Positions 770 through 64,000 of a stretch of 64,000 nucleotides of DNA are shown here, one piece after another. Under the pieces are notes generated by a model. That model did not search any database and had not been told where the DNA came from. It was given only the letters and a program-made list of their open reading frames with translations. Source of the DNA: a virus (lineage: Duplodnaviria > Heunggongvirae > Uroviricota > Caudoviricetes > Thumleimavirales > Hafunaviridae); the IMG/VR virus record IMGVR_UViG_2974793440_000001, positions 12,822 to 76,821 of that record; one strand, 5' to 3'. The position numbers were made by a program, and so were the translations under genes. Numbering within the stretch: position 1 is the first letter of the stretch; each line of letters begins with the position of its first letter.

Positions 770-2062
770 ATGGCTGACTACGGCAACACTATCGAACCCG
801 GTATTGTTACGAACGTCAACTCGGCGCTGGCTGTCACTTCGAGTGGTGGCGCTCCCGCTGACGTTGGACTCGTTGGACAGGCTGACCTCGATGCGGGGAC
901 GGCGCAGGCAAACGCTGTCTATCAGGTCACTCGTGCGACGATGGCGCGTGAATGGTTCGGTGAGGACAGTCCCCTCACGCAGAACGTTCTCGATGCTCTC
1001 GCGGAGGGAGCCTACCCGGTCTACGCGGTCGCGGTTGACCTCGTGGACGTGACGGGCGAAGACCTCTCCGGTCTTGCCTCAAACACGGGCACGCTGGCCG
1101 AGGGGCCGGTGAGCGAGGACGCCGCCGACACGGTGTTCACCATCAACGGCTCCGACCTCACGACCGTTCTGAAGTACGAAGACCTCTCTACTCTCTCGCC
1201 GGGTGCTGGCGAGGTCTACGTCAACCCATCGACGCGAGAGTTCAAGATTGACGCCGACGTGACCGTGGGCAACACGGGCGACTCCGTGGACTACGCCTAC
1301 GGCGACTACGACGCTGGCAATCAGGCGCTCGCGGAGGGCGCTGGTGGCGCTGTTGACTTCTTCGTTCCGCTGAGCGAGGAAGCGACCGCGACTCAGGACG
1401 CGCAGAGTACGGTCGGGGCGCTCGCCTCCGAATACAACTTCGCAATCGCTATCGTCGGCGCTACTCCCGGCCTCGACCCGGAGAGCTACAACAACTCGTT
1501 CGACGATTCTCGCGTTCAGGTCGTCTACCCGGCCCGGAACGCGGAGGGCTACTCCACGCTCGGTTCCTACGCTGGACGCCGCGCGAAGCTCGGTATCACG
1601 ACCACGCCAATCAACAAGCGCCTCTCCACGCAGAAGTCGCTCGCTGTCAGTCTTGACCGCGCGGCCCGTGGTGCGCTGATTGACGAGCGCGTTGTTCCGC
1701 TGGCTGACGAGACGGAGGGCGCTCGGATTGCCGACGACGTGAACACCGTGAGCGACACGAACACGGAGGAGGCGGGCATCCGCTTCGGCTTCACCCGGCT
1801 CGTGATGGACTACGTTATCACGACGATTCGCGTGAACGAACAGCCCTTCATCGGTCGGCTGAACAGCCGTGCGGTGCGGGCGTCCCTTGAGGGGCTTCTG
1901 AGCAACCAGCTCAAGACCCTGAAGCGGTCGAACGCGATTATCGACTACAACGTGAACGTGTACCGTATCGACGCGACGAGCGCCGCCGTTGAGATTCAGG
2001 TTGAGACGGCCAAGCCGCTCCGCTTCATCGAGAACACGGTCACGATTGGCGCTTCGGCGTAA
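770..2062 (+). CDS. putative contractile tail sheath protein (P2 FI-like by size and gene order)
   Basis: 430 aa, followed by a 181-aa tube-sized gene, a chaperone pair and the tape measure; synteny inference, no motif check possible. Confidence 0.45.
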   Translation: MADYGNTIEPGIVTNVNSALAVTSSGGAPADVGLVGQADLDAGTAQANAVYQVTRATMAREWFGEDSPLTQNVLDALAEGAYPVYAVAVDLVDVTGEDLSGLASNTGTLAEGPVSEDAADTVFTINGSDLTTVLKYEDLSTLSPGAGEVYVNPSTREFKIDADVTVGNTGDSVDYAYGDYDAGNQALAEGAGGAVDFFVPLSEEATATQDAQSTVGALASEYNFAIAIVGATPGLDPESYNNSFDDSRVQVVYPARNAEGYSTLGSYAGRRAKLGITTTPINKRLSTQKSLAVSLDRAARGALIDERVVPLADETEGARIADDVNTVSDTNTEEAGIRFGFTRLVMDYVITTIRVNEQPFIGRLNSRAVRASLEGLLSNQLKTLKRSNAIIDYNVNVYRIDATSAAVEIQVETAKPLRFIENTVTIGASA

Positions 2063-2090
2063 AGACTCAACTTCCACTTTTTAACTCATT

Positions 2091-2636
2091 ATGTCTGCTT
2101 CTAACGTTGACCGGATTGAGAGCGCGGCAAACATCACTCTGAACATCTCGCGTGGTGGGTCGCAGGTTACGACGGATTCTGTTTCGGCTCCCGCTGACGA
2201 TGGTGGTAGCTTCACCGATTCCGAGCGTGCTGAGGCTGTTGATGCGGGTACTCTCCGAGTCCCCATCTCGCGGCTGGACACGACCAAGGACATTGAGATT
2301 TCCGAGATTCGGGAATCCTCGCTGAAGGCGAGTGGCTATTCGGTCACTTCCATCAGCTACTCCGGCTCGATGATGTTCAAGGGCGAGCGGGTTCACGGCC
2401 CGGACAACGAGCCGGTTTCCATCGAATCGCTCATCTACGACGAAGATGGCGTTCCGATTCCCTGCTCTGTCACCATCACCCACGAACTCTCTGGTAAGAC
2501 GGAGACGTTCGAGGACGTTCTCGTGACCAGCGATTCCTACGAGGTTCAGTCTGAGTCTGAGACTGAGACGGCTTTCGACTGGATTGCGATGGATAAGGTC
2601 ACGAAAGACCCCGAGACGGACTCCGAGAGTTCGTAA
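2091..2636 (+). CDS. putative tail tube protein
   Basis: 181 aa, sits between the sheath-like gene and the chaperone/tape-measure genes. Confidence 0.4.
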   Translation: MSASNVDRIESAANITLNISRGGSQVTTDSVSAPADDGGSFTDSERAEAVDAGTLRVPISRLDTTKDIEISEIRESSLKASGYSVTSISYSGSMMFKGERVHGPDNEPVSIESLIYDEDGVPIPCSVTITHELSGKTETFEDVLVTSDSYEVQSESETETAFDWIAMDKVTKDPETDSESS

Positions 2637-8099: not shown

Positions 8100-8163
8100 C
8101 TCACATCATATATAAACCCTTTACCATTAATAGTAGTAGAGAACGCCCTTCTTCACCCCTCTC

Positions 8164-8490
8164 ATGCTGGATTTAGCCCTAAATAGTGACTTCTCTGTTT
8201 TTCTCAACGAGAACGGCGACCTCGGTACGGTGAGTGGGCGCGAGGAGTTCGAGCAGTCGGTTGTAATTCTAATGACCGAGCTAATGCGTAGCTCGACCAT
8301 CGGAGAGTTCGACCAATCTACGATTGAGCAGAAGCTCAAGCTCGAAGCAACTCGGGTCGCACGGAAACACGATTTCCTCTCGGAGATTTCGGGAATCGAC
8401 GTTTCGCCGCACAAGGAGAACCCTCACACATACGTTGTAAGTATCGACTACAAAACAGACCGAATTTTCGAGGAGAATATTAGCGGATGA
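8164..8490 (+). CDS. baseplate wedge protein, gpW/gp25-like
   Basis: 108 aa, 'NGDLGTVSGREEFEQSVVILMTEL..GE' resembles the GPW_gp25 family; AT-rich promoter-like region upstream (8100-8160). Confidence 0.5.
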   Translation: MLDLALNSDFSVFLNENGDLGTVSGREEFEQSVVILMTELMRSSTIGEFDQSTIEQKLKLEATRVARKHDFLSEISGIDVSPHKENPHTYVVSIDYKTDRIFEENISG

Positions 8491-13902: not shown

Positions 13903-14739
13903 CTATTCGTCTTGGTCGTTGGGGAGCATCCGCGACCCCGGCTTCGGTTGCCAGCGACGGTCACGGTACGTGGAAACGTGAGAACTTAGTTCGTTCTTTG
14001 TTCGCTCACGTTCGAGCTGTTCACCCTCTGTCATTGCGCGACTGGTCGCATCCGTGAGAATCGTGTCACGTCGGAAGGGAATGACCTGAATGATGGGTTC
14101 TCCTTCGGGGATAACACCCTCGAAGTCACCGCCTGTCCACATGAACGGGGCGTTGACATTGTTGAAGTAGTTATCAATATCGACCACTCCCGAGAATGGG
14201 GTGAATGGCTGGCCCGGACGGTTGAGCGGATTCGTAATGAGAACCGAGTAGCCGTCTGGAACCTTCATACACCATTGATTGTTGAACTTCAGAATCGGCC
14301 ACTCGTGATTTGGGAACGCAGTTCCCCCGACCTGCCCCAAGTGGTGCTTCGAGATTAGCGGATTCGGAAATTCCCATTCGTACTCTACGTACCCATCTTT
14401 TGCGCTGAAGTGGATTTCTCCCGCGAGTGGGATGATGAACCCCATCGTCATTGCCTCCATGAACGGAGCGCAACGCTTGACGGTGGAGCGGCTAATTCCC
14501 TCTCTGGTATTCGTTGAGCCAAACTCGCCGTCGTTGGCGGTGTATTGGCCGAGCTTCTTGTACCAGTCCGGTAGAACCTTGTTTGCCGGTATTGGTTCGG
14601 GAATCGCTCCGTACAGTTCTTCGTCGGTCACGAACTCGATGAGCTGGTCTTCTTCCGGTTCTTCTTCTGCTGGCGTACCGTCCGGCCTCACGTAGTTAGA
14701 GAGGTCACTAACGGCGCTGGTTACACTCGAAAAATCCAT
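13903..14739 (-). CDS. hypothetical protein (278 aa) on the opposite strand, with its own promoter element
   Basis: Minus-strand ORF; canonical promoter/leader element with GGAGG immediately upstream (14744-14800). Confidence 0.4.
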   Translation of the reverse strand: MDFSSVTSAVSDLSNYVRPDGTPAEEEPEEDQLIEFVTDEELYGAIPEPIPANKVLPDWYKKLGQYTANDGEFGSTNTREGISRSTVKRCAPFMEAMTMGFIIPLAGEIHFSAKDGYVEYEWEFPNPLISKHHLGQVGGTAFPNHEWPILKFNNQWCMKVPDGYSVLITNPLNRPGQPFTPFSGVVDIDNYFNNVNAPFMWTGGDFEGVIPEGEPIIQVIPFRRDTILTDATSRAMTEGEQLERERTKNELSSHVSTYRDRRWQPKPGSRMLPNDQDE

Positions 14740-14743
14740 TTCT

Positions 14744-14800
14744 CCTCACTCTATTAGACGTGAAGCAAGGACTTAAAGATACCTCTTTGAGTCTTTAGTC
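14744..14800 (-). promoter_or_regulatory. canonical promoter/leader element driving the 13903..14739 gene (TATA-like CTTTAAG, then CGTCTAATAGAGTGAGGAG, then ATG)
   Basis: CCTCACTCTATTAGACG...GACTTAAAGATACC...GAGTCTTTAG; the GGAGG just before the ATG is Shine-Dalgarno-like. Confidence 0.45.
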
Positions 14801-14809
14801 CCCTACGAT

Positions 14810-14938
14810 ATGATACCTGAACTCGCAAACACCCCACCCCTCGTGGCGTGGGCACTCGGATTCTTCATGGCATTGGCACTCAAACGTGGCCGAATCGCGG
14901 CCATCCTCGACCGGCTACTCCCGACAGAAAACTAACAA
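14810..14938 (+). CDS. small hydrophobic ORF (42 aa, one TM helix) between inverted promoter elements
   Basis: ATG 14810, translation MIPELANTPPLVAWALGFFMALALKRGRIAAILDRLLPTEN, TAA 14936-14938; not in the ORF track (<60 aa). Confidence 0.25.
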
Positions 14939-14953
14939 ACTAAGACTTAATTC

Positions 14954-14993
14954 GGCATCTTTAAGTCCTTAGTAGCCGTCTAATAGAGTGAGG
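14954..14993 (+). promoter_or_regulatory. canonical promoter/leader element, inverted copy, upstream of nrdJ (about 180-nt leader)
   Basis: GGCATCTTTAAGTCCTTAGTAGCCGTCTAATAGAGTGAGG. Confidence 0.45.
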
Positions 14994-15174
14994 AACTTCG
15001 TGACGAACGGAGTGACTTCACTCGAACATCCATACCCCGTATTACCCACTTAGGGTAGTACGGGGTGTTTTTCACTCTAAGTAGTTCGCACAGTAGAGGG
15101 TAGGATAGAGACAAACCCCTCGATGTGTTGAATCACTCTCAGTAGTTCACATACTATACTAATATACTATACAA

Positions 15175-17595
15175 ATGTCCGTAGTCACAACTGAAGCAGA
15201 CGAAACCGAACAGACCATCGAAACCCCAATCAAGACCGTCGAGGATTCTCTCTCCGTAGAAGACCGCCTCACCGACAACGCACTCCACGGTATTCTCCCC
15301 GCTCGCTACTTCCGCAAGGACTCAGAGGGCAACATCATCGAGGATGCTAACGACCTATTCCGACGAGTCGCGGAGAACGTCGCGGGGGCCGAGGTATCCG
15401 ACGAGGACTTCGAGAAGTGGGCCGACGAGTTCCAGTACCAGATGGAAACCCTCCGGTTCACCCCGAACAGCCCGACCCTGATGAACGCGGGAACCGACAT
15501 GAATCAACTGAGTGCGTGCTTCGTGCTGGAACCCCGCGACGATATGGAGGATATTTTCGAGACGGCTCAGCAGGCCGCGCTGACGTTCCAGAGCGGGGGC
15601 GGCGTCGGGTATGCCTTCTCTCACCTCCGACCCAAAGGAGCGTTTATCAATTCGACTGGTGGCGAAGCGAGCGGCCCGGTGAGCTTCATGCGGGTCTTCG
15701 ATGAGACGTGTAATCAGGTGAAGCAGGGCGGCAAGCGCCGTGGCGCTCAGATGGGGATTCTTCGCGCCGACCACCCTGACATTGGGCGATTCATCGTGGC
15801 AAAGAGGAACGAGGGGGAGTTTGCGAACTTCAACATCTCAGTCGCTACGACGGACAACTTCATCGAGGCAGTTGAGGCTCAGGACTCCTACACTCTATTC
15901 GACCCGGAGACGGACTACGAGGAGCCGTACATAGTCCGAGAGGCGTCGGCCCACTTCTACTCCCCGGAGTATCAGGACAACCCGCGTGACGCTTTTGACG
16001 ACGGCGAGGGCGCGGTCGTGGAGGAGAACCTGTGGCGGGACTACGCCGACGAGATTGAGTGCGAGCTGTTCGGGGAGCGCGTGACGCTCCGTGAGAAGTG
16101 GGAGGAACACGAGGGTCTTCGCCTCGAAGTGGGGGAGCCGATGGAGCTTCCCGCCGCGTTCATTTGGGACGTGATGATTGACGGGGCGTGGCGGAACGGT
16201 GAGCCGGGCCTGTTCAACTTCGAGGAGTCGAACCGCCAGCACTCCTTCGACGTGGACGAGTACCCCGAGTTCCGAATGAACGCGACTAACCCCTGCGCCG
16301 AGCAGATGCTCGTGGAGTACGAGGCGTGCAACCTCGGTCACATCAACCTGAGCTTGATGCTGAACGAGGACGCCCCGACCTACGACGAGTTCCTGAGCGA
16401 CAAGCTGGATTCAATCGCTACGGGCGACCTTTCCACCCGCGAAGCCGTGGAGTGGTACTTCGAGGAGGTCACGAACTTTGAAGACCTGAATCGAACCATC
16501 GAGGCGGGTGTCCGATTCCTCGATAACGTGGTCACGCAGTCGGACTTCCCCATCCCCGAGATTACCGAGCGCGTCAACGGGATGCGGAAAATCGGACTTG
16601 GCATTATGGGCTTCGCTCAGATGCTTTTCCAGATGGGGATTCCTTACGGGACGCAGGACTCCTACGAGGTCGCGCGGTGCGTGATGCGGTACATCGACCG
16701 GAAGGGAACGTGGTCGTCGCACAATCTCGCTAAGGAGCGCGGCGTGTTCTCCTACTGGGACAAGTCGAAGTACGCCAACCCGACCGAGTACCCCGAGTGG
16801 TTCGCGGCCCGCACCGGGCTTGACCCGAACGACCACGCTGGCGGGTTCTTCATCCGCAACCACAACATTACGACAATCGCCCCGACCGGCACGACCTCGA
16901 TGCTGGCGAACACGACGGGCGGGTGCGAGCCTGCCTACAACGTGGCGAACTTCAAGAACGTCTCCGAGGACATTCAGGGCGACGACCTGCTCGTGGAGTT
17001 TGACGACTACTTCCTTCGGACGCTCGAAGCGAACGGCCTCGATGTGGAGAGCATCAAGGAGGAAGCCGAGCGGCTGATGCGGAACAACGAGTTTGAGGGG
17101 GTCAACGACCTCTCCATCCCCGAGGAAATCGCTGAAATCTTCGTGACCACGCAGGACTTGTCCTCCGAACAGCACGGCCTGATGCAGAGAGCGTTTCAGG
17201 AGTTCTGCGACTCGGGTATCAGCAAGACGGTCAACCTCCCGAACAGCGCGACCCACGACGACGTGAGCGAAGCCTACCAGCTCGCGCTCGATGCGAACCG
17301 GCGCGGCGCGGTTATCAAGGGCCTCACCGTGTACCGGGACGGCTCTCGGGACGTTCAGGTTCTCACGACGCGCGTGGACAACAATCTGGACGACGACGGC
17401 GACCGCGACGACGACCTGCTCGAACTATACCTCAAGGGAGAGGTCAGCGAGAAGGCGGCGGTTCAGCTCGGTATCGTTGGCGAGGACGACGTGGGTTCGG
17501 ACACGCTCACCTGCCCGGAGTGCGGAGACGGTGAGCTTGAGAAAACAGACGACTGTGCGGTGTGCCCGGAGTGCTGGTACAGTCCGTGTAAGTAG
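15175..17595 (+). CDS. nrdJ: ribonucleotide reductase, class II (adenosylcobalamin-dependent)
   Basis: 806 aa; 'NPCAEQ' active-site motif, catalytic-Cys context and a C-terminal CxxC...CxxC zinc ribbon typical of NrdJ; no intein apparent. Confidence 0.9.
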   Translation: MSVVTTEADETEQTIETPIKTVEDSLSVEDRLTDNALHGILPARYFRKDSEGNIIEDANDLFRRVAENVAGAEVSDEDFEKWADEFQYQMETLRFTPNSPTLMNAGTDMNQLSACFVLEPRDDMEDIFETAQQAALTFQSGGGVGYAFSHLRPKGAFINSTGGEASGPVSFMRVFDETCNQVKQGGKRRGAQMGILRADHPDIGRFIVAKRNEGEFANFNISVATTDNFIEAVEAQDSYTLFDPETDYEEPYIVREASAHFYSPEYQDNPRDAFDDGEGAVVEENLWRDYADEIECELFGERVTLREKWEEHEGLRLEVGEPMELPAAFIWDVMIDGAWRNGEPGLFNFEESNRQHSFDVDEYPEFRMNATNPCAEQMLVEYEACNLGHINLSLMLNEDAPTYDEFLSDKLDSIATGDLSTREAVEWYFEEVTNFEDLNRTIEAGVRFLDNVVTQSDFPIPEITERVNGMRKIGLGIMGFAQMLFQMGIPYGTQDSYEVARCVMRYIDRKGTWSSHNLAKERGVFSYWDKSKYANPTEYPEWFAARTGLDPNDHAGGFFIRNHNITTIAPTGTTSMLANTTGGCEPAYNVANFKNVSEDIQGDDLLVEFDDYFLRTLEANGLDVESIKEEAERLMRNNEFEGVNDLSIPEEIAEIFVTTQDLSSEQHGLMQRAFQEFCDSGISKTVNLPNSATHDDVSEAYQLALDANRRGAVIKGLTVYRDGSRDVQVLTTRVDNNLDDDGDRDDDLLELYLKGEVSEKAAVQLGIVGEDDVGSDTLTCPECGDGELEKTDDCAVCPECWYSPCK

Positions 17596-17603
17596 AACTG
17601 GTC

Positions 17604-17954
17604 TTAGTTATCTCCGAACTCAAAGCGGTCGCCTTCATCCTCGGGGTTCATATCGAGAACGACGAAGGTGGCAACATCCATTTCGTCTGTTCTCCCACTC
17701 GTCGCTTCGACGTACAATCCATTCCCAATCGTTCCGGTATCGAATCCTTCTGAGGGAGCTGGCGATGGGTTGGCGTCTATGTCGTATCGGACGGTAAACG
17801 GATAGAGCGTCTGTCCATAGTCGTTTTCTTCTTCTTCAGAGTAGTCTAAGAACTCGATAGTAACGTCTTCTTCATCTAATTCTTCTCTCGCAACGAGAAA
17901 TGCTTGCTCACAGATGCTCTCACATTCTTCCGGCGAGGGCTTGAGCGGTTCCAT
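17604..17954 (-). CDS. hypothetical acidic protein
   Basis: 116 aa, convergent with the RNR gene. Confidence 0.35.
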   Translation of the reverse strand: MEPLKPSPEECESICEQAFLVAREELDEEDVTIEFLDYSEEEENDYGQTLYPFTVRYDIDANPSPAPSEGFDTGTIGNGLYVEATSGRTDEMDVATFVVLDMNPEDEGDRFEFGDN

Positions 17955-17992
17955 TACCGGAGTCTAAGTGTATCTCCGAATATAGTTCTTGG

Positions 17993-18045
17993 GTTTAAAT
18001 AGGCAATCCCCCCATCGGGCTTCGGCCCGGTGGGGGATTTTTGTG
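17993..18045 (+). promoter_or_regulatory. TATA-like TTTAAATA followed by a GC-rich 13-bp hairpin and a T tract
   Basis: ATCCCCCCATCGGGC-TTCG-GCCCGGTGGGGGAT then TTTTTG; lies upstream of tbp. Confidence 0.3.
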
Positions 18046-18225: not shown

Positions 18226-18840
18226 ATGAGCGGTGACTCAGAAATAGAATCCTTACCCGATATCGAGGTGGCGAATATCGTTGCGTCGGGAAAACTAAAC
18301 CTCGAATTAGACTTAGCGGCGGTGGCCGAAGACCTCCGAGAACTGGATATAATTGAGGACGTGGAACACAGCCGACGGCAGGGGAATCGGCTTCTAATCC
18401 ATTTTAGAGAGGGAGAGGCGCTTGGTATTCTCGCCCCAACTGGTGTCTACGTCTTCACCGGGGTTGATACCCACGAGGAGATACACAGCGCCAAGGAACA
18501 ACTCTTTAGCGCCCTCGCCTCATTAGGAATTATCTCTGGTGTAGATGTGGACGAGTCCGAAGTAGTCGATGAATTTCAGGTTCAGAACGTCGTTTGTACC
18601 GCCGAGTTGAGTGACCACCTGAATCTAAATCTTAATGCGCTCGCCATCGGGCTGGGACTTGAAAACACCGAATATGAACCTGAACAGTTCCCCGGTCTAA
18701 TTTTCCGACCGAGTAGTAGCAGTTGCACGATACTCATATTTGCGTCTGGGAAAGTCGTAATTACGGGCGTCAGAGAGGCAGATACGGCCCAAACCGAGTT
18801 TGTCGAACTCCGCGAGAAATTGGAGTCTCTTCTGGGTTAG
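18226..18840 (+). CDS. tbp: TATA-box-binding protein homologue, virus-encoded
   Basis: Start reassigned to the internal ATG at 18226 (MSGDSEIESLPDIEVANIVASGKLNLELDL...); second repeat 'LNLNALAIGLGLENTEYEPEQFPGLIFR...ILIFASGKVVITG' is near-identical to the haloarchaeal TBP consensus; first repeat is divergent. Confidence 0.85.
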   Translation: MSGDSEIESLPDIEVANIVASGKLNLELDLAAVAEDLRELDIIEDVEHSRRQGNRLLIHFREGEALGILAPTGVYVFTGVDTHEEIHSAKEQLFSALASLGIISGVDVDESEVVDEFQVQNVVCTAELSDHLNLNLNALAIGLGLENTEYEPEQFPGLIFRPSSSSCTILIFASGKVVITGVREADTAQTEFVELREKLESLLG

Positions 18841-22164: not shown

Positions 22165-22388
22165 ATAAAGAGTCACGCACCGGGGGTTTATAAAACGGGG
22201 GTTGGTAGGGGGTTCTTCATTTCCCAATATGAGTTATGGATAGAAAGTGGTACACGCACGGCATCCGGGGCTATACCCCCTGTTTATTTATAAGCAGAGT
22301 TGGTAGTAGAGTGTAGAGAAGCACGCCAAGTGGTGTGAACCCGGCAAGGAGTGCCGGAAGCTTAGCCACTCCCCGCCGGAGGCGAGCG

Positions 22389-22435
22389 CGTCCTTGGTAA
22401 GGACGAGAGCGCGGGTTCAAATCCCGCCTCAGGCT
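22389..22435 (+). other. attP-like site: 3' portion (anticodon arm to 3' end) of a tRNA-Thr(GGU) gene, no 5' half
   Basis: Anticodon arm CGTCC-TTGGTAA-GGACG, T arm GCGGG-TTCAAAT-CCCGC, acceptor 3' strand CTCAGGC; no matching 5' acceptor or D arm upstream; lies immediately 5' of the integrase gene. Confidence 0.6.
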
Positions 22436-24109: not shown

Positions 24110-24226
24110 ATGTCTGACGATAAAGGAAACCCGAATATCGCCGCGAACGTCAAAGTGTGCCTCAAAGACGGCTGTAAAGCCAGCATTGGGCGAGAACACA
24201 AATTCTGTCCGAAGCATCGAGGGTGA
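24110..24226 (+). CDS. mini zinc-finger protein 3 (38 aa)
   Basis: MSDDKGNPNIAANVKVCLKDGCKASIGREHKFCPKHRG. Confidence 0.5.
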   Translation: MSDDKGNPNIAANVKVCLKDGCKASIGREHKFCPKHRG

Positions 24227-24228
24227 AT

Positions 24229-24342
24229 ATGTCTGAAGACGACCCCCTTGGAATAGACCAAAAGCTCAGTCTATGCGCTAAATCGGGGTGCGATACCCCG
24301 ATTGGGCGAGAACACGAATTTTGTCCACAGCATCGTGAGTGA
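24229..24342 (+). CDS. mini zinc-finger protein 4 (37 aa)
   Basis: MSEDDPLGIDQKLSLCAKSGCDTPIGREHEFCPQHRE. Confidence 0.5.
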   Translation: MSEDDPLGIDQKLSLCAKSGCDTPIGREHEFCPQHRE

Positions 24343-24344
24343 TT

Positions 24345-24455
24345 ATGTCTGACGACAAATTTGAAACTGATGCGTTACAGAAGACCTGTGCTGAATCGGG
24401 ATGTAAAAGCGCAGTAGGACGAGAACACGACTACTGCTTTGAACATCGGGAATAG
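24345..24455 (+). CDS. mini zinc-finger protein 5 (36 aa)
   Basis: MSDDKFETDALQKTCAESGCKSAVGREHDYCFEHRE. Confidence 0.5.
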   Translation: MSDDKFETDALQKTCAESGCKSAVGREHDYCFEHRE

Positions 24456-26988: not shown

Positions 26989-27202
26989 TAGTTCTGTTTA
27001 GATAGAGTGTATAACTCTGTGTGTTCTACTACGGTACTGTCTTAGTTGAGTGAACAACCCTCGATGTGGTAAAACTCAAAGTAGGTAACTATCAGTAGAT
27101 AACTACTAAGAGTATATATCTAAGATAGATATTTCGCGCGTTATGAGCGCCCGCGCCCTTCATTCGGATGTTTCGTCGTATAGTACCGATACGGTACTAT
27201 AT

Positions 27203-27229
27203 GACTTAAAGATGCCGAAATAAGTCTTA
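27203..27229 (-). promoter_or_regulatory. conserved promoter element copy (GACTTAAAGATGCC...AAGTCTTAG), oriented towards rtcB
   Basis: Matches the element family listed under findings. Confidence 0.4.
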
Positions 27230-27234
27230 GTGGG

Positions 27235-29298: not shown

Positions 29299-29507
29299 TC
29301 GTGGTAGTAGACGAGATTGAGGTCGATTTCGGTCATCTCGGGGTTGAAGTGATGCGTTTCCTGAAACCCCTCGATGCGGCAGTCCTCTCGTAGTACGTCG
29401 CTGAGAACGTCAGCGAGCATTGATGCAAGTTCGTCCTGAGTAACGGGTGTGATGTATCTCATAGATGCGTCTCTCTGGTTCAGAAAAGCGGAGAAGTCGC
29501 TCCTCAC
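29295..29507 (-). CDS. hypothetical small protein
   Basis: 70 aa; canonical promoter element plus ACCAGAGAGA upstream. Confidence 0.3.
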   Translation of the reverse strand: MRSDFSAFLNQRDASMRYITPVTQDELASMLADVLSDVLREDCRIEGFQETHHFNPEMTEIDLNLVYYHE

Positions 29508-29557
29508 TCTAATAGACGGTATCTAATGACTTAAAGACTCCTATGTGAGTCTTTAGG
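29502..29557 (-). promoter_or_regulatory. canonical promoter/leader element copy upstream of the 29295..29507 gene
   Basis: CCTCACTCTAATAGACGG...GACTTAAAGACTCC...GAGTCTTTAGG. Confidence 0.4.
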
Positions 29558-37686: not shown

Positions 37687-37773
37687 TTAGTGTCCTGCTT
37701 GTTGCGTACTGCTAAGACTCGTAGAACGGTGCTTAACTCTTTGTAAAAGACTTGGCGCTATGTCTTCGAGTCT

Positions 37774-39054
37774 TTACGGCTGGTACTGCACGTCGTAGAG
37801 CCACGTAAGCGGGAGGCTGTCCGAGACGCCGTGGATGGTCGCTCCCGGCATAGACCACTCGGAGATGGATTCCTCGAAGTCACCCGGCGGCTTGATGGAA
37901 CCGGAGCGAATCACGGGGACGTTCATTACGCGGTCAACACCCTGCGTGTGGTAGTGCCCGGCGTAGGCAATCTCGAAGTTGTGCTGAAGGAGCCATCCGC
38001 GCCAGTCGCGCTTCGCGGCGGCAGTACCGATGTGTTCCGCCGCGTTCTGACCGTGGCGGATATGCGCCTTGTGGCCCCGAATCTCGAAGTTCGTGAAGCC
38101 CGTCCGGTCGTTTCGGATGAAGGTGATGTTGTCGTACTCAGACGCCCGAACAACCGCATCGAGCATCCGGTACACAATGTCGTCGCCGTTAGCCTGCTGG
38201 CTCGAACCGCTAATGCGAATCTCGCCGTGGTTGCCGGTCTGACACACCACCTGAACGGCGTCGAAGTTCTCCGCGAGAATCCGAATCTGCTCGAAGTGAA
38301 CCTGAGCCGCGAGGTCTACCTGCTCGTTGAAGTTCAGTTCGACCTCCCACGCCTGCCCTCGGTAGATACCGGAGCCGGTGATAATGTCGCCGCCCATCAC
38401 GTAGTGAACCGTGTGGAAGTCCCACCCGGCCTTCCGCTGGCGCTCAATCAGTTCGAGCGTCTTCTGCGTCCGGTAGCGGATACGTTCGAGAGCGATTTCG
38501 GTGTTGAAGACCTCGTTCCCGAACTCGTCTTCGAGAACGTCGCCAATGTGGTCGTCCGTGACGTGAATCACCACGTCTTCCTCACCACCCTCGGAGAGCG
38601 GGACGGCGCTAATAGCGGGTTCCGTGTTGTTCAGCACTTTATCGAGACGCCGCGAGAGCGACCCGGCGGCCTTGTTCAGCCGCTTCGTCTTGGTCGCCTT
38701 CGTGGTCGAACCGTACTCGCGGGTCTTGTTCTGGTTCGTGGGGTGTTCCTTCTCCACGTCCCGCATATACGCTTCGACCTTTCCCCCGTCGATGCGTCTT
38801 TTCGCAAGGGGAGCGCCCTTGCGCTCGATGCTACTGATGTGGTCACGGGCGGTGGACTCGGAGAAGCCGAACTCCTCGGAGAGCTGAGCGTAGCCAGCAG
38901 GCAGGTAGTCGATGATTTCCAGTTCGGTGGGAGTGAGATTCTGTTCGTAGTTCATTGAGTTACGTATTCTTCGTCGTAGATTCGGCAGGATTCGTCCGAG
39001 CGGTCGTTCATTCCGACACAGAACTCGCCGCCAGCGTCCCACACGTTCTGACAA
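37774..39054 (-). CDS. HTH-domain protein fused to a calcineurin-like metallophosphoesterase (Mre11/SbcD-like)
   Basis: 426 aa; N-terminal HTH repeats; 'VIHVTDDHIGD', 'CQTGNHGE' phosphoesterase motifs. Confidence 0.6.
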   Translation of the reverse strand: MSERVGRWRRVLCRNERPLGRILPNLRRRIRNSMNYEQNLTPTELEIIDYLPAGYAQLSEEFGFSESTARDHISSIERKGAPLAKRRIDGGKVEAYMRDVEKEHPTNQNKTREYGSTTKATKTKRLNKAAGSLSRRLDKVLNNTEPAISAVPLSEGGEEDVVIHVTDDHIGDVLEDEFGNEVFNTEIALERIRYRTQKTLELIERQRKAGWDFHTVHYVMGGDIITGSGIYRGQAWEVELNFNEQVDLAAQVHFEQIRILAENFDAVQVVCQTGNHGEIRISGSSQQANGDDIVYRMLDAVVRASEYDNITFIRNDRTGFTNFEIRGHKAHIRHGQNAAEHIGTAAAKRDWRGWLLQHNFEIAYAGHYHTQGVDRVMNVPVIRSGSIKPPGDFEESISEWSMPGATIHGVSDSLPLTWLYDVQYQP

Positions 39055-42121: not shown

Positions 42122-42172
42122 CTTCTAAGAGTTAGTGGGTTGTTTTTGAGTCTTTACACCGAGAAGGAACGC

Positions 42173-43272: not shown

Positions 43273-43299
43273 AAGAGAAAGGGAGGATTGGGTGCTTGT

Positions 43300-43338
43300 C
43301 CCTACTCTATTAGATGTGGGACTAAGACTTAAAGATAC
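43300..43338 (-). promoter_or_regulatory. canonical promoter element copy upstream of tRNA-Asn
   Basis: CCCTACTCTATTAGATG...GACTTAAAGATAC. Confidence 0.4.
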
Positions 43339-43435
43339 TTATTTAATTCTTAGAAGTCGTCGGGAGGGATACCCCGCTCGATGATGTTTGTAGCAAGTGG
43401 AGAACCACGACCGGGAGAGGAAATAGTAGAGAACA

Positions 43436-45379: not shown

Positions 45380-45564
45380 TTCGTAGATTTCTCTCTGGTC
45401 TGTTTCATAGGGCGATAAACCGCATCGAGTTGGGAGGAATCGAACCATCCCTCTATGCGAACCAGCAACTCGGAAAGGCCACCGCAGAGCAGTAGCTGGA
45501 CACCAACGAGTCAAACTATGACAGGATTCAGCCAAGCAAACGAGTCAAGGGGGCCACCGCGACC

Positions 45565-45621
45565 TCCTCACTCTAATAGACGGGAACTAAAGACTTAAAA
45601 ATACCGATTTGAGTCTTTAGG
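45565..45621 (-). promoter_or_regulatory. canonical promoter/leader element (copy upstream of the SPFH gene)
   Basis: CCTCACTCTAATAGACGGGAACTAAAGACTTAAAAATACC...GAGTCTTTAGG. Confidence 0.45.
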
Positions 45622-46716: not shown

Positions 46717-46774
46717 TTTCGGGGTGGCCTATGTTAATGCCGTCCATTGGTCTAACCTGTAAAGACTCATAATC

Positions 46775-46814
46775 GGTATCTTTAAGTCTTTAGTTCCCGT
46801 CTATTAGAGTGAGG
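46775..46814 (+). promoter_or_regulatory. canonical promoter/leader element (copy upstream of the 46999 gene, about 185-nt leader)
   Basis: GGTATCTTTAAGTCTTTAGTTCCCGTCTATTAGAGTGAGG. Confidence 0.45.
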
Positions 46815-46998
46815 AGTTCTTCCGAACGGACTACTAACCAGTATAGTACCTACTCTACTCTAACTACTCTGATAACACTCAGTTAGCTAAAGAGACTCGA
46901 TGTAGTAATCTACTATAAGTAATACACTTAGTAGTTATACTCTTAGTTATACTGTTAGGTCAGTTATCGGGGAACTCTACCCTCTGAGATGATTCTAA

Positions 46999-51883: not shown

Positions 51884-51932
51884 TTCTTATGTTCCTCTAA
51901 GACTCAGAGCAGTATCTATAAGTCTTTATCGC

Positions 51933-53729: not shown

Positions 53730-54149
53730 TTCTTAGAAGGTTCTGGTCAGCTCGTCACAGCCGGGGCGACCAACTCCCGACGACGCCCCACGGTGGGGCG
53801 TTTCGCCGTTACTCCTGCCACCAACGACGCTCGATGTTGATTATCTCCGATACATCCCGTCGCGGAGCAGACTTTCCACGACGCCGCCAGCAAGCCTTCC
53901 GCCGTAGGGAGTAGAAATACTCGTAGTCGGCTTGCTCTATCTTCTCTATGTCTTCTCCTTCCATACTACCGTAAGTGACACCGCAAGTTGTTCGTCAGTA
54001 GTTACTTCGAGGGGACAGCTCGCCGCCGAGTCCCGCTGGCTCCGCCCTCGGAACCGGGCACTTCGTCGGTTCGAGCGTCATTTGGTCAACCCCGTGTTTC
54101 GAGAGAGGTTCACCACACCGACTACACCGCTCGTCTTCTCGGGACATTA

Positions 54150-55281: not shown

Positions 55282-56133
55282 CTACCACAGTTCCACCCCC
55301 GGAGTGTCCACGTACAGCGGGCCGATTAGTTCGGCCACCTCGCTGAAGTTCTCCGGCTTCACGATGAAGCCCCGCCAAGCAAGACTGAACTTCCCGAGGT
55401 CGCGCTCCTTCAGCTCGTCGTCCAAGACTCGGCAGATGTGTTCGTTGTAGAGCCGGGGAACCACGAAGAACCCCTGAGGGAACTGTTCTATCTGGAAGGT
55501 CGTCGGCTTCTCCTTCACGAGTGAACCCCACAGGTGGGTCTTCTCCGGGTCGCCGCCGTGTTGGGACACCCACATCTGAGTCACGAGGCTCCGGTAGCGT
55601 TCGTGAGTGTGGAGGGCTTCCACGTTCCTCGGCTCTTTCAACACATCGAGGGTGTCTATCTCATCGAGGTGGTGCTTGAGGTCGTCCACCACGAGGGCCT
55701 TTGCGATGTTCTCGTTCAGCTCCTTCATCGTCCCGTAGAGGGTGTCCGACGCCCACCCGTCCTCCACGGTCTGCTCGATTGTCTCCGGGTCGAGAACGAA
55801 CCGCCGGTAGTAGCCCCACACCTTCCCACCGACTGACTCGTAATACTGCTCGATGCGTCCGAACTCTGTCTCCCACACTTTCGGGTCGTCGTTGGCGGCC
55901 TCGAAGTCGGGGCGCTCCGTGTAAATCGTCTTGCTCTTGCCGTTGAAGATTTCCCGAATCCAGAAGTCGTCGTAGAGGGGCTTTGGGTCGTCCGGGTCAG
56001 TCAGTTGACCGGCCTTCCACACCGGATGAACCGGGTCGTCGGGCTTCAGGGTCGTCGTTCCGACGTGTTTGTTCTTCTTGAGTTCGACCAGCGATTCTCC
56101 GGCCTTCGTCTCGATAGGAGTTGGAACGCTCAT
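55282..56133 (-). CDS. hypothetical protein
   Basis: 283 aa; TTTAAAGACTCAAA immediately upstream of the ATG. Confidence 0.35.
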   Translation of the reverse strand: MSVPTPIETKAGESLVELKKNKHVGTTTLKPDDPVHPVWKAGQLTDPDDPKPLYDDFWIREIFNGKSKTIYTERPDFEAANDDPKVWETEFGRIEQYYESVGGKVWGYYRRFVLDPETIEQTVEDGWASDTLYGTMKELNENIAKALVVDDLKHHLDEIDTLDVLKEPRNVEALHTHERYRSLVTQMWVSQHGGDPEKTHLWGSLVKEKPTTFQIEQFPQGFFVVPRLYNEHICRVLDDELKERDLGKFSLAWRGFIVKPENFSEVAELIGPLYVDTPGVELW

Positions 56134-56142
56134 TTTGAGTCT

Positions 56143-56328
56143 TTAAATCATCCGCCGAGCCGCCATTCCACCAACGAACTTCTGGTGGTGCTGTCCACAG
56201 AGGATGAACCGCGCCGTGTCGTCCTCCGCAATCCGTGTTCCCTGATACGGGCAGGGGTCGTCGTCGGTCGCTACTTCTCGTCCGTGGTGGCACATCTCGT
56301 TGCCGTGGTAGTGTTCAAAGTCAACCAT
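56143..56328 (-). CDS. small Cys/His-rich protein (61 aa)
   Basis: MVDFEHYHGNEMCHHGREVATDDDPCPYQG...; 1-nt overlap with the upstream gene. Confidence 0.25.
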   Translation of the reverse strand: MVDFEHYHGNEMCHHGREVATDDDPCPYQGTRIAEDDTARFILCGQHHQKFVGGMAARRMI

Positions 56329-59667: not shown

Positions 59668-59769
59668 AGGTGTCACTCGGTAGTATGGACTACCGGAAGC
59701 CCCGCTACGGAGTCGAACCGTAGCTACCGCCACTCGGGGCAAAGGGTTAGAGTTGCTTACTTGAGTCTT

Positions 59770-59870
59770 TAGAGCCTATGGAATCCACGCCTCCGGTCGG
59801 CTCTCTCGGCTCGTTCGAGGTCACAGTACCAGCAGTTACACTCCGGGTTGAACGAATGTGGTTTCTTCAT
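59770..59870 (-). CDS. possible 33-aa Cys-containing micro-protein
   Basis: MKKPHSFNPECNCWYCDLERAERADRRRGFHRL; speculative. Confidence 0.2.
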
Positions 59871-60636: not shown

Positions 60637-60870
60637 TTATTCGCTCGCTTCGCTATCCGCCGCGTTCAGCGCCGCTAACTTGTCCATCTCCCTCCGGTAA
60701 TCCTCGTCGCTGAGGGGGTTCGTGAGACTGCCAGCGCCGCCGCTACGTCGTGGATACTCTCGTTCCATAGGTGTCACTCACGATAGCTTTCGCTATCGTA
60801 GGCCCTTCCGGGGAGTCGAACCCCGGAGCCGCCGCTAAGGGTTAATGAAGCGCCTTTGAGTCTTTGCGCC

Positions 60871-61749: not shown

Positions 61750-64000
61750 AGTTCGTTGGGTGTCACTTACGGCTTATTGGGTCAGGGAAGCCGCGAGAAA
61801 ACCTGAATCCGGCTTGAGAAGTCACTAAGTGACTCACTCAAGACCGTTGGGGTTGCTTAGCACGGGGCTTAGCCCCGTAAAGACCCTTAATGGGTACACC
61901 TTTCGGTGGAACCTTTCTTACCTATCCTTTCCCCCGGTTTACACCGGGGCCGGACATACTAACGACCGTTTTAAACGTGACACACATCCCTCAAAGCCGG
62001 TTGCTATACGCTACGCTATGTGAACTGCTCACTATGCGGAGCTTCAAACCTCAAAGAGTCTTTCGCGTTAATCGCTACTTTGAGCTGTTGCTCGGTGGAC
62101 TAATACGTTCGTCTCTCGCGCCTAATCTGTGGCATAGGTTATTCGTTCCATAGGCTAAGCTACTGCCTATTTTAAGTTGTAACCGGGGCGAGATTCACAT
62201 TTCAGTACCCTGTTGGTACTGTATGGCAAGCTATGAGCATTAATGCTCTTAGCGCCGGTTTTCGTCACTCTTTGCCCTAAGGGTCGGTCTTTGTCCGGGC
62301 CAAACTACCCCGTATCACCTGAAATACACACCGGAGCGTATGCTTTCCACCGTGGTAGGTTTCCAGCTACCCCGCCCGCTTAGCGGGCCGGGCCGTTCCG
62401 GGTTCGGGCCGTCACTACGAACGGGGGCGAGTTACCCCGTCCCGTCCGTTCGGGCCGTACCTACGACGTACCTCCGGGCGGGCCGTTCGGGGCCGGGCTT
62501 TGCTTACTCAACAGGGAACCCGGTGGCCCACCTTTGGCGTTTCGGGGCTAATCCGTCCCGTTCCGACTCACAAGAGCCTTTCCGGGCCGTTTCGCCCCAC
62601 GTTCCTACCCCCGTCCGACCGTTTCGGACGGGTTCCGTTCCCCCGTACTGGGTACGGGCTATGTGTCTTTAAATCAGGTAGCCACACCGGATACCCCCGT
62701 TGGGGCGACGTAAACACCGACTTACCTAACCGTCCCGTCTCTCGGGGTACTGGGGCGTCAATTCGCCGGGTTCCCCGCTAATCGCACAACTTTACCAACA
62801 GGTGTGTGTCGGGCCTACATTCCGTATCGGGTTCCGTTTCGGCCCGTGGTTCCGTCCGTCCGTCGTACCCCGACCGGGGCCGTTTCGTCCGAACCTACCC
62901 ACGGGCCTACTAACCCGCCCCCGACCGTTCGGGGGGAACGTGGTAGTAGTTCCGTCGTAGGGTGGTAGCGTACTGGGGAAACCTCGGAGGGATACGCATT
63001 TGGCGACGTACCCCGCATTTAACGGGTTTCCCGTCTTTGTCCCGGCCCCCGGAGGGGGGCCGTCTTTTTGCGTCCGGGCCACCGGGGGGCCACCGGAGGG
63101 ACGGACGCTTAGCGTCCGAACCCCGGAGGGTTCCCCCGACCGTGGGGCCGGGAACGTTCCGACCGTCCGGGCCACCGTAGGCCCGTCCGACCGGGGCGAA
63201 CTATCCCGGCCCGCTCCGAGAGGGGCCGGGGCCGCTTTCGTCAAGCGACATTCTACCCAAATGGGGGTAAGTATATAAAGGTTGTGTAAGATAAACCGAG
63301 CAGTCCTATTAATCCGTCGAACCCGGAGGGTACAAGCCCCGAGACGGACGGATAGGTGCGACACAAGACGGGAGTATATCATAAAACAGAGAGATATATA
63401 CAGTAAGAGTATATAAAGGATAAAAATTTGAAAGTGGCAAGCGCGGAGGGTACAAGCCTCGATGCGGTAAAACACGGGTAAAATAATCCCACGACAAACA
63501 CCCACATAGTCAGACACACACCGAATTAACAAAACACCTGTAAGTGGTGATACCGGGGGATACGGCCCCCGAGACGGACGGATAGGGGTAGCGCGGGCGA
63601 GACGGGACGAGACGGAACCCCGACGTACCCCGCGCGGGACGGACGAGAGACGGACGGACGGACGAGAGACGGCCCGTACTTGCCAAATGCGCCGTTTTCA
63701 GGTGGCCCGAGAGTCGGGATAACGGCCCGTATGGACGGTGTGAGACGGCCCAGTACGGCCCGCGCGGGGGGCGAGAGACGGATATACGGCCCAGTACGAC
63801 CGGAGCGACCGGAGCGACCGGGACGGGACGGGACGGGACGGGCCACCGGAGCGACACACCGACCGACCGACCGGGTACGCGCCCCGCGCCCGCGTAGGCA
63901 CAGCGATAACGTACATATCCGGGGGTACAAGCCCGAGCGAGGGGGCGAGGGGGCCACCCGGTTAGAACATTAAGGTGCTTTCCGCAGGCGCATATTTAGT
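61750..64000. repeat. 2.2-kb ORF-free, repeat-dense region; candidate replication origin or genome terminus/packaging region
   Basis: No credible ORF on either strand; dense short direct repeats (GGGCCG, CCGTTCGGG, GGGACGGGACGGGACGGG, GACCGGAGCGACCGGAGCGACC, GACGGACGGACGG); four or more copies of a roughly 30-bp unit CCGGAGGGTACAAGCCCCGAGACGGACGGATAGG separated by AT-rich stretches of about 80 bp. Confidence 0.6.

Follow-up and report, generated by a model that had tools for sequence, protein, structure and literature searches.

Unannotated orthologues of the HF2 class I intergenic repeats in Haloarcula virus HJTV-2

The window analyzed here, a 64,000-nucleotide stretch of viral DNA, is 100% identical over positions 14000-18000 to Haloarcula virus HJTV-2 (MZ334513.1, 76,821 bp; Haloferacalesvirus, Hafunaviridae), and about 40 HF1/HF2-type relatives match the same interval at 80-94% identity. 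A window position is the record position minus 12,821. At 14.7-15.0 kb, two copies of a recurring intergenic repeat (IR), here named IR6 and IR5c after their HF2 counterparts, lie between gp36 and nrdJ, one on either side of the small gene gp37 (Table 1). An earlier sequence-only reading of this DNA had placed a 42-aa membrane ORF between copies that face each other. A small hydrophobic ORF is indeed present, although it encodes 41 aa, and the copies stand back to back: IR6 fires left into gp36 and IR5c right toward nrdJ. Since the two are divergent, gp37 lies upstream of both starts, and forward transcription from either copy misses it. All 10 aligned genomes are collinear at this locus, with the orientation of the small ORF constant.

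The gp37 product matches phrog_19997 (E = 6e-26), its core TPPLVAW-LGFFMALALKRGR is unchanged in six viruses despite the accumulation of synonymous changes, and in HF2 a 35-kb late transcript (R131) covers the orthologue in sense. It is probably a real gene. We considered the reversed alpha motif of IR6 as a promoter for leaderless gp37 and rejected it; its TTTGAG at 14786 would place the start at about 14816, past the ATG at 14810, and the reverse activity of HF2 IR6 is negligible (PMC8707807).

The repeat recurs in the window far more often than chance would allow. Its 5' half, GGTATCTTTAAGTCYTTAGT, with up to three mismatches, has 4 matches against 0.00 expected, its 3' half, CCGTCTAWTAGAGTGAGG, has 5 against 0.10, and the six occurrences of the 8-mer CTTTAAGT, compared with 0.83 expected, all fall within listed repeat copies. 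In the seventh copy (45564-45621) the 8-mer is replaced by TTTTTAAGT. Five copies contain the core CGTCTNNTAGAG exactly and the 43.3-kb copy (IR3) contains it with one mismatch; the 27.2-kb copy lacks it. An alpha motif (CTAAAGACTYARA) is found about 21 nt 5' of the TATA box in all seven, with 0-3 mismatches. Our repeat search recovered the copies as the direct families D2 and D3 and the inverted pairs I1-I7 and I10, and a scan of the full 76.8-kb HJTV-2 genome found exactly seven class I copies, all within the window. Every copy (~57 bp) is intergenic in the deposited annotation. The sequence-only reading had named equal frequency inside coding regions as a refutation, and this outcome is therefore not seen. 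The seven sites that it had listed all exist and each copy points at the gene it had assigned; in the copy at 27191-27231 the alpha and beta parts are there, whereas the 3' part is replaced by a palindrome.

Neither the HJTV-2 GenBank annotation nor the HJTV-2 genome paper mentions the class I repeats. An Rfam scan of the whole window returned nothing at the repeats or their leaders, and only the tRNA-Asn, a tRNA-like attP and a type II hammerhead elsewhere; matches from a sigma-70 scan were disregarded, as this is an archaeal virus. The hammerhead ribozyme (RF02276, 45.4 bits; 53742-53808, minus strand) immediately precedes the Rad3-like helicase gene and is unannotated in HJTV-2, while the orthologous site is annotated in HF2. 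The weak tRNA-like match (37 bits; annotated tRNA-Thr; 22353-22435, plus strand) adjoins the integrase gene and is the counterpart of the proposed HF2 attP. Other repeats in the window are a 56-nt direct pair with 86% identity (24185-24240 and 24301-24356) among the tiny ORFs gp52-gp56, and three 34-nt direct copies 110-120 nt apart at 63323-63586, near the right genome end.

Table 1. Repeat copies and associated features of HJTV-2, in window positions unless marked otherwise; repeat copies are named after their HF2 orthologues.
Feature	Position	Strand	Predicted start	Details
IR6 orthologue	14742..14800	-	G 14747	alpha CTAAAGACTCAAA; TATA TTTAAG 14777-14772; gamma CGTCTAATAGAGTGAGGAG; target gp36 (ATG 14739; 8-nt leader)
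IR5c orthologue	14939..14995	+	G 14990	TATA TTTAAG 14960-14965; target nrdJ (ATG 15175, 185 nt downstream)
IR4.5 orthologue	27175..27231	-	~27178(-)	alpha and beta, TATA at 27210; palindrome TATAGTACCG-TATC-GGTACTATA in place of gamma; target rtcB (ATG 26988; copy ~190 nt upstream)
IR4 orthologue	29500..29557	-	G 29505	upstream of gp65 and thymidylate synthase
IR3 orthologue	43298..43355	-	~43303(-)	gamma slightly degenerate (CATCTAATAGAGTAGGGA); ~31 nt upstream of tRNA-Asn (43272-43199), head of a long replication operon
IR2 orthologue	45564..45621	-	45569(-)	TATA variant TTTTTAAG; upstream of SPFH/prohibitin gp92
IR1c orthologue	46757..46819	+	46811(+)	188 nt upstream of gp96 and ERCC4 nuclease gene
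gp37	14810..14935	+		41-aa small hydrophobic protein; HF2 HrrHF2_470, phrog_19997
Hairpin then T5	15032..15074	+		in IR5c-nrdJ leader; 12 alignment-supported pairs
Alpha-like dyad	2059-2092	+		GTAAAGACTCAAC...TAACTCATTATG; ends exactly at tail-tube gene start codon
Alpha-like dyad	record 8229-8262 (outside window)			CTAAAGACTTAATC...TAACTCTTTATG; ends exactly at major capsid gene start codon
Further dyads	42125-42160, 51897-51932			family D1
Single alpha sites	37745-37780, 56114-56149, 59740-59775, 60835-60870			family D1

The element itself is already known, having been in the literature since 2002 and experimentally tested in 2021. Tang et al. 2002 (Mol Microbiol 44:283) described the class I IRs of HF1 and HF2, and Russ, Pfeiffer and Dyall-Smith (Viruses 2021, 13:2388; PMC8707807) added IR4.5 as the seventh. 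In the latter study, all HF2 class I IRs gave strong bgaH reporter activity in Haloferax volcanii in their native orientation without viral genes, and low or negligible activity in reverse (PMC8707807). As the reporter host contained no viral protein, the host basal machinery suffices for these promoters. Primer extension of the reporter transcripts found a common start at a G in the gamma motif, and a start two bases further on in IR4.5; the evidence for these starts comes from plasmid-borne reporters in a heterologous host rather than from infected cells (PMC8707807). Scanning mutagenesis of HF2 IR4 identified the TATA box and gamma/initiator as essential, their mutation abolishing activity, and BRE, alpha and the non-TATA part of beta as dispensable for basal activity (PMC8707807). 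The HF2 class I repeats possess a TATA box and a BRE as well as the mapped start, and their position and sequence are conserved across the genus (PMC8707807). The authors also suggested that virus-encoded factors may bind the IRs for temporal control (PMC8707807).

We find the same elements in HJTV-2. The HF2 GenBank record annotates IR1c, IR2, IR3, IR4, IR5c and IR6 as “AT-rich intergenic repeats that contain promoter motifs”, next to the ERCC4 operon, prohibitin, tRNA-Asn, the ThyX operon, Rnr and HrrHF2_475, respectively, and the HJTV-2 copies have the same neighbors. Flanking genes and orientations correspond one-to-one between the two viruses and the copies align base for base. As in HF1 and HF2, there are seven copies of ~57 bp with the same order and spacing of alpha, BRE, TATA-containing beta and gamma/INR, the same IR4.5 palindrome in place of gamma, and the same divergent IR5c/IR6 pair around a 41-aa ORF. 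The repeats of HF2 and HJTV-2 show point differences only, such as the TATA box TTTTTAAG of HJTV-2 IR2 and the IR3 gamma ending ...GAGTAGGGA; the IR6 leader is 4 nt longer than in HF2, and HJTV-2 carries an insertion between polB and IR4, an HNH endonuclease gene, that HF2 lacks.

The repeat is confined to this genus. A blastn search with one 63-nt copy found 233 places in 41 of 50,697 phage records, all 41 of them Haloferacalesvirus with similar class I copy numbers, and zero matches in the other ~50,650. A strict beta-gamma pattern had no exact match in 185,579 GTDB species-representative prokaryotic genomes and so gave no sign of copies in host chromosomes, although diverged proviruses would escape exact matching. 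A looser pattern applied to IMG/VR returned 119 loci that we set aside as mostly chance matches in unrelated AT-rich phages; the genuine ones were HF-like contigs only, with a 12-nt gap and TTTAAGTC...GTCT..TAGAGTG. These whole-genome and cross-virus motif searches, which the sequence-only reading had called for, thus place seven copies in HJTV-2 and the repeat in 41 Haloferacalesvirus records.

Based on these observations, the seven elements are very probably Haloferacalesvirus class I IRs, that is, ~57-bp promoter cassettes read by the host TBP, TFB and RNA polymerase. They are AT-rich, 56-58 bp long, intergenic, present in several copies per genome and restricted to the genus; the beta sequence (TCTTTAAGTC / CTTTAAGT) is found only in the IRs, and the gamma core CGTCTNNTAGAG is missing only from IR4.5, which has a 9-bp inverted repeat there instead. 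The HJTV-2 copies are unannotated orthologues without unexpected features. The proposal of a virus-specific promoter class on early and middle genes therefore holds, given the reporter activity, mapped start, TATA box and BRE of the HF2 orthologues and the restriction to one genus. The class II IRs of the same viruses (29 bp, late-gene promoters) are likewise conserved, genus-specific, intergenic promoter cassettes, but their sequence is unrelated (ATATATAAACCCTTTACCATTAATAG), they lie in the morphogenesis arm, and in HF2 they are bidirectionally active (PMC8707807). One class II copy, ATATATAAACCCTTTACCATTAATAGTAGT, is present at 8108-8137 on the plus strand between the PAAR-repeat and gp25-like baseplate genes and is the orthologue of HF2 IR11c; a second lies outside the window at record position ~1050-1080. 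Both were found through the core CCCTTTAC, with a 1-nt indel relative to the HF2 sequence.

With the first T of TTTAAG counted as 0, alpha (AAGACTYAAA) spans -18 to -9 in the class I layout and is followed by cGGTA, a BRE-like sequence, from -7 to -3; positions 0 to +5 are the TATA box TTTAAG, which is part of beta (TCTTTAAGTC), and gamma (CGTCTAWTAGAGTGAGGA) occupies +17 to +34. The TATA-like CTTTAAG of the sequence-only reading is borne out, TTTAAG being the TATA box both in the published HF2 repeats and here. The consensus of 33 distinct gamma-bearing copies from about ten genomes reads AAGAct.aaat.GgtaTCTTTAAGTC.Tt....c.CgTCTA.TAGAGTGAgGA. Pooled over these 33 copies, conservation stays high between -18 and +34 and drops to background directly 5' of alpha and about 5 nt past the start, and in this profile the TATA box is both unusual and invariant. 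Generic haloarchaeal promoters similarly have a TATA box ~25-30 nt upstream of a purine start that follows a pyrimidine, a BRE directly upstream of the TATA box, and recognition by host factors (PMC8707807). The class I IRs differ from them in carrying ~35 extra near-invariant positions (alpha, 3' beta, 5' gamma) that basal promoters do not need.

We infer that transcription starts at the G of gamma at +30 (GAGT[G]AGG). This is the only placement that gives HF2 IR4.5 a G two bases downstream; the bases at -1/+1 are then T/G, the BRE (-37 to -33) is then cGGTA, immediately 5' of the TATA box, and the segment from -7 to +1, the most conserved according to the 2021 paper, then equals the invariant block TAGAGTGA. 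The start could alternatively be the G at +26, which is another meaning of that paper's “TATA beginning at -26”. Under either start, only 6-10 nt of the element are transcribed. The element had been thought to include an attached conserved 5' leader, but the mapped start is the G inside TAGAGTGAGG and conservation collapses ~5 nt later, indicating that the conserved 3' block is promoter-proximal, or initiator, DNA rather than a leader.

The repeats and their predicted starts bear on two annotated ORFs. The annotated GTG of gp65 (29507) falls within the gamma motif of IR4, 2 nt upstream of the predicted start; the true gp65 start is probably the ATG at 29462, 45 nt further downstream, where the HF2 orthologue is annotated. 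The 47-aa ORF gp93 (45455-45598, plus strand) is antisense to the SPFH leader, and 35 nt of it fall within IR2. At the equivalent place HF2 carries a tRNA-Arg and lacks such an ORF, and gp93 may be spurious.

The leaders below the repeats are less uniform than the sequence-only reading had suggested. A GGAGG 4-6 nt before the ATG is found at gp36 only (GAGGAGAAATG), whereas the other six copies lie 31-192 nt from their genes. Even at gp36 the orthologues carry GTGAAGATG (HF2, HRTV-5, -8 and -10) or GTGAAGACAAATG, so that GGAGG is not conserved, and the repeats do not supply a Shine-Dalgarno leader in the sense of a GGAGG at a fixed short distance shared among orthologues. Distances of about 180-200 nt do occur, as had been noted, but these stretches are not simple leaders: that of nrdJ contains a conserved, terminator-like hairpin, and in HF2 the region below IR1c has its own mapped bidirectional promoters (PMC8707807). 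The leaders of nrdJ (15115-15175), gp96 (46895-46960) and rtcB (27040-27125) share CTCGATGT (reversed in rtcB) and TAGTAGTT-type boxes. There are also CTTAGTAGTTAT / TATACTCTTAG boxes in the gp96 and rtcB leaders and a partial AGTAGTTC in that of nrdJ. These shared boxes resemble the repeat-embedded bidirectional promoter region that was mapped at 17022-17068 of HF2.

The sequence-only reading had suggested that the repeats are served by the viral TBP. The HJTV-2 genome does contain a gene for a TBP homologue (gp41; window 18226-18840, plus strand), and a TATA box as unusual and invariant as TTTAAG could be thought to need a factor of its own. However, the class I repeat is present in all 41 Haloferacalesvirus records, whereas a tblastn search of the 50,697 phage records with gp41 found only HJTV-2 itself and a partial, 44%-identical match in HRTV-9. 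HF2 has no tblastn match to HJTV-2 gp41, no TBP gene is listed in its annotated first 50 kb, which hold all its class I IRs, and its IRs are active in uninfected Haloferax volcanii, in which no viral genes are present (PMC8707807). The rarity of gp41 beside a repeat found in 41 records, together with the reporter activity, largely refutes specific dependence on the viral TBP, which we regard as extremely improbable. We likewise consider it highly improbable that the inverted repeat formed by alpha and beta acts chiefly as an RNA hairpin, a processing or stability signal in read-through transcripts to which promoter activity would be secondary. Transcripts of 18-35 kb do cross several IRs in HF2 and are thought to be processed to smaller RNAs (PMC8707807), and the best alpha/beta copies have hairpin potential of up to -11 kcal/mol. 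Yet the arms show no compensatory changes, and in IR5c of HF2 and HRTV-5, with 7/13 matches and an MFE of -1.4 kcal/mol, pairing is lost while beta stays invariant. Conservation follows sequence rather than pairing, and promoter function has been directly demonstrated in HF2 (PMC8707807).

The inverted arrangement of some copies could also be read as that of recombination substrates or mobile-element remnants, with IR6/IR5c and IR2/IR1c bracketing invertible or exchangeable cassettes. The arms of the first pair (I3) are 53 nt long and lie 146 nt apart around gp37; those of the second (I1; 45561-45609 and 46771-46819) are 49 nt long, 96% identical and 1161 nt apart, flanking gp94 and a LAGLIDADG endonuclease gene. 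Within HJTV-2, IR1c resembles inverted IR2 more closely than either resembles its counterpart in HF2, a pattern suggestive of gene conversion; HJTV-1 has its best IR1c match on the opposite strand. Against such cassettes, the ten aligned genomes are collinear with the small ORF in the same orientation throughout, each copy is always directed at its downstream gene, repeat positions are fixed across the genus, and there are no target-site duplications. With neither duplications nor variable position or orientation, this origin seems extremely unlikely, and the promoter cassette read by host factors is the interpretation that we retain.

Additional functions may be associated with the parts of the cassette that a basal promoter does not need. 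Alpha is the reverse complement of beta (CTAAAGACTYAAA-N8-TTTAAGTCTTTAG), with 13-nt arms that match at 7-12 of 13 positions across 33 copies and an 8-nt spacer spanning the BRE. Arms that lack covariation, and an alpha that is lost in some orthologues while beta is invariant, argue against an RNA hairpin and for two protein half-sites, one on each side of the BRE. Across the genome there are 28 occurrences of the half-site AAGASTYA, compared with 5.3 +/- 2.3 expected from third-order Markov simulations, and 22 of the 28 fall in the non-coding 7%. At the tail-tube gene and at the major capsid gene alike, the dyad has its alpha starting 32 nt ahead of the ATG, and the spacing of 20-21 bp is that of the IRs. 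The six sites of family D1 are intergenic and belong to minus-strand early/middle operons, where the half-site reads TAAAGACTCAAA on the coding strand; at several of them a degenerate inverted partner lies ~20 bp away. An explanation of alpha as a fixed-distance TATA box at these extra sites was rejected, as start-codon distances range from 13 to 99 nt with no single geometry.

Alpha and the non-TATA part of beta may be viewed as putative sites for a viral or host regulator that would time early-to-middle expression; alpha being an inverted copy of beta, a hypothetical dimeric protein could straddle BRE and TATA box. Mutations in alpha were without effect in the HF2 reporter (PMC8707807), and since no viral proteins were present there, this result is silent on regulation. 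In its main text, the 2021 paper speaks of inverted repeats in other contexts only, never uses the word “palindrome” and does not describe alpha and beta as inverted copies of one another (PMC8707807). Its primer table (IRA, IRB, IRCc, IRDc, IRPc) and a remark on T-4384 indicate that several extra half-sites were known to the authors (PMC8707807). As the table shows that extra sites had been cloned, our dyad observation is an extension rather than a discovery.

The leader of nrdJ contains a further conserved structure, a hairpin followed by five T residues (Table 1), which lies ~45-85 nt past the predicted IR5c start, with ~100 nt left to the nrdJ ATG. Its conservation extends to ten relatives, and 12 of 12 pairs are kept in seven distinct sequences (16 pairs in a single-sequence scan when G-T is counted). 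Two pairs are changed on both sides (G-C to A-U and U-A to C-G), one pair changes via G-U, and no pair is broken in the stem body. The final 70 nt before the nrdJ ATG are also more conserved than the flanks of the IRs. The hairpin may function as an attenuator, mark the 3' end of a small RNA or stabilize upstream transcripts.

These observations permit two extensions of the known promoter model, which taken together we hold only tentatively and consider somewhat unlikely. The selected unit may be the dyad AAGACTYAAA-N8-TTTRAGTCTT, to which a virus-encoded regulator would bind as a dimer, covering BRE and TATA box. The strong IR5c promoter, for its part, may mainly make a structured RNA of ~85 nt that ends at the hairpin and its U5.

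The HF2 promoter map transfers directly to HJTV-2, and to that map our analysis adds little that is new beyond predicted starts for seven HJTV-2 transcription units and two points of annotation, the gp65 GTG upstream of the predicted IR4 start and the overlap of gp93 with IR2. The residual interest is in the dyad with its possible regulon and in the covarying hairpin of the nrdJ leader. If the dyad is indeed bound by a viral regulator, the presence of its half-site at at least a dozen further intergenic sites would point to a genome-wide regulon linking middle and late genes, and if IR5c mainly yields the short RNA, the viral ribonucleotide reductase would be under the control of that RNA, acting as an attenuator or a small RNA. 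The non-basal parts of the repeat and the nrdJ-leader hairpin thus bear on how an archaeal virus times its expression without a polymerase of its own.
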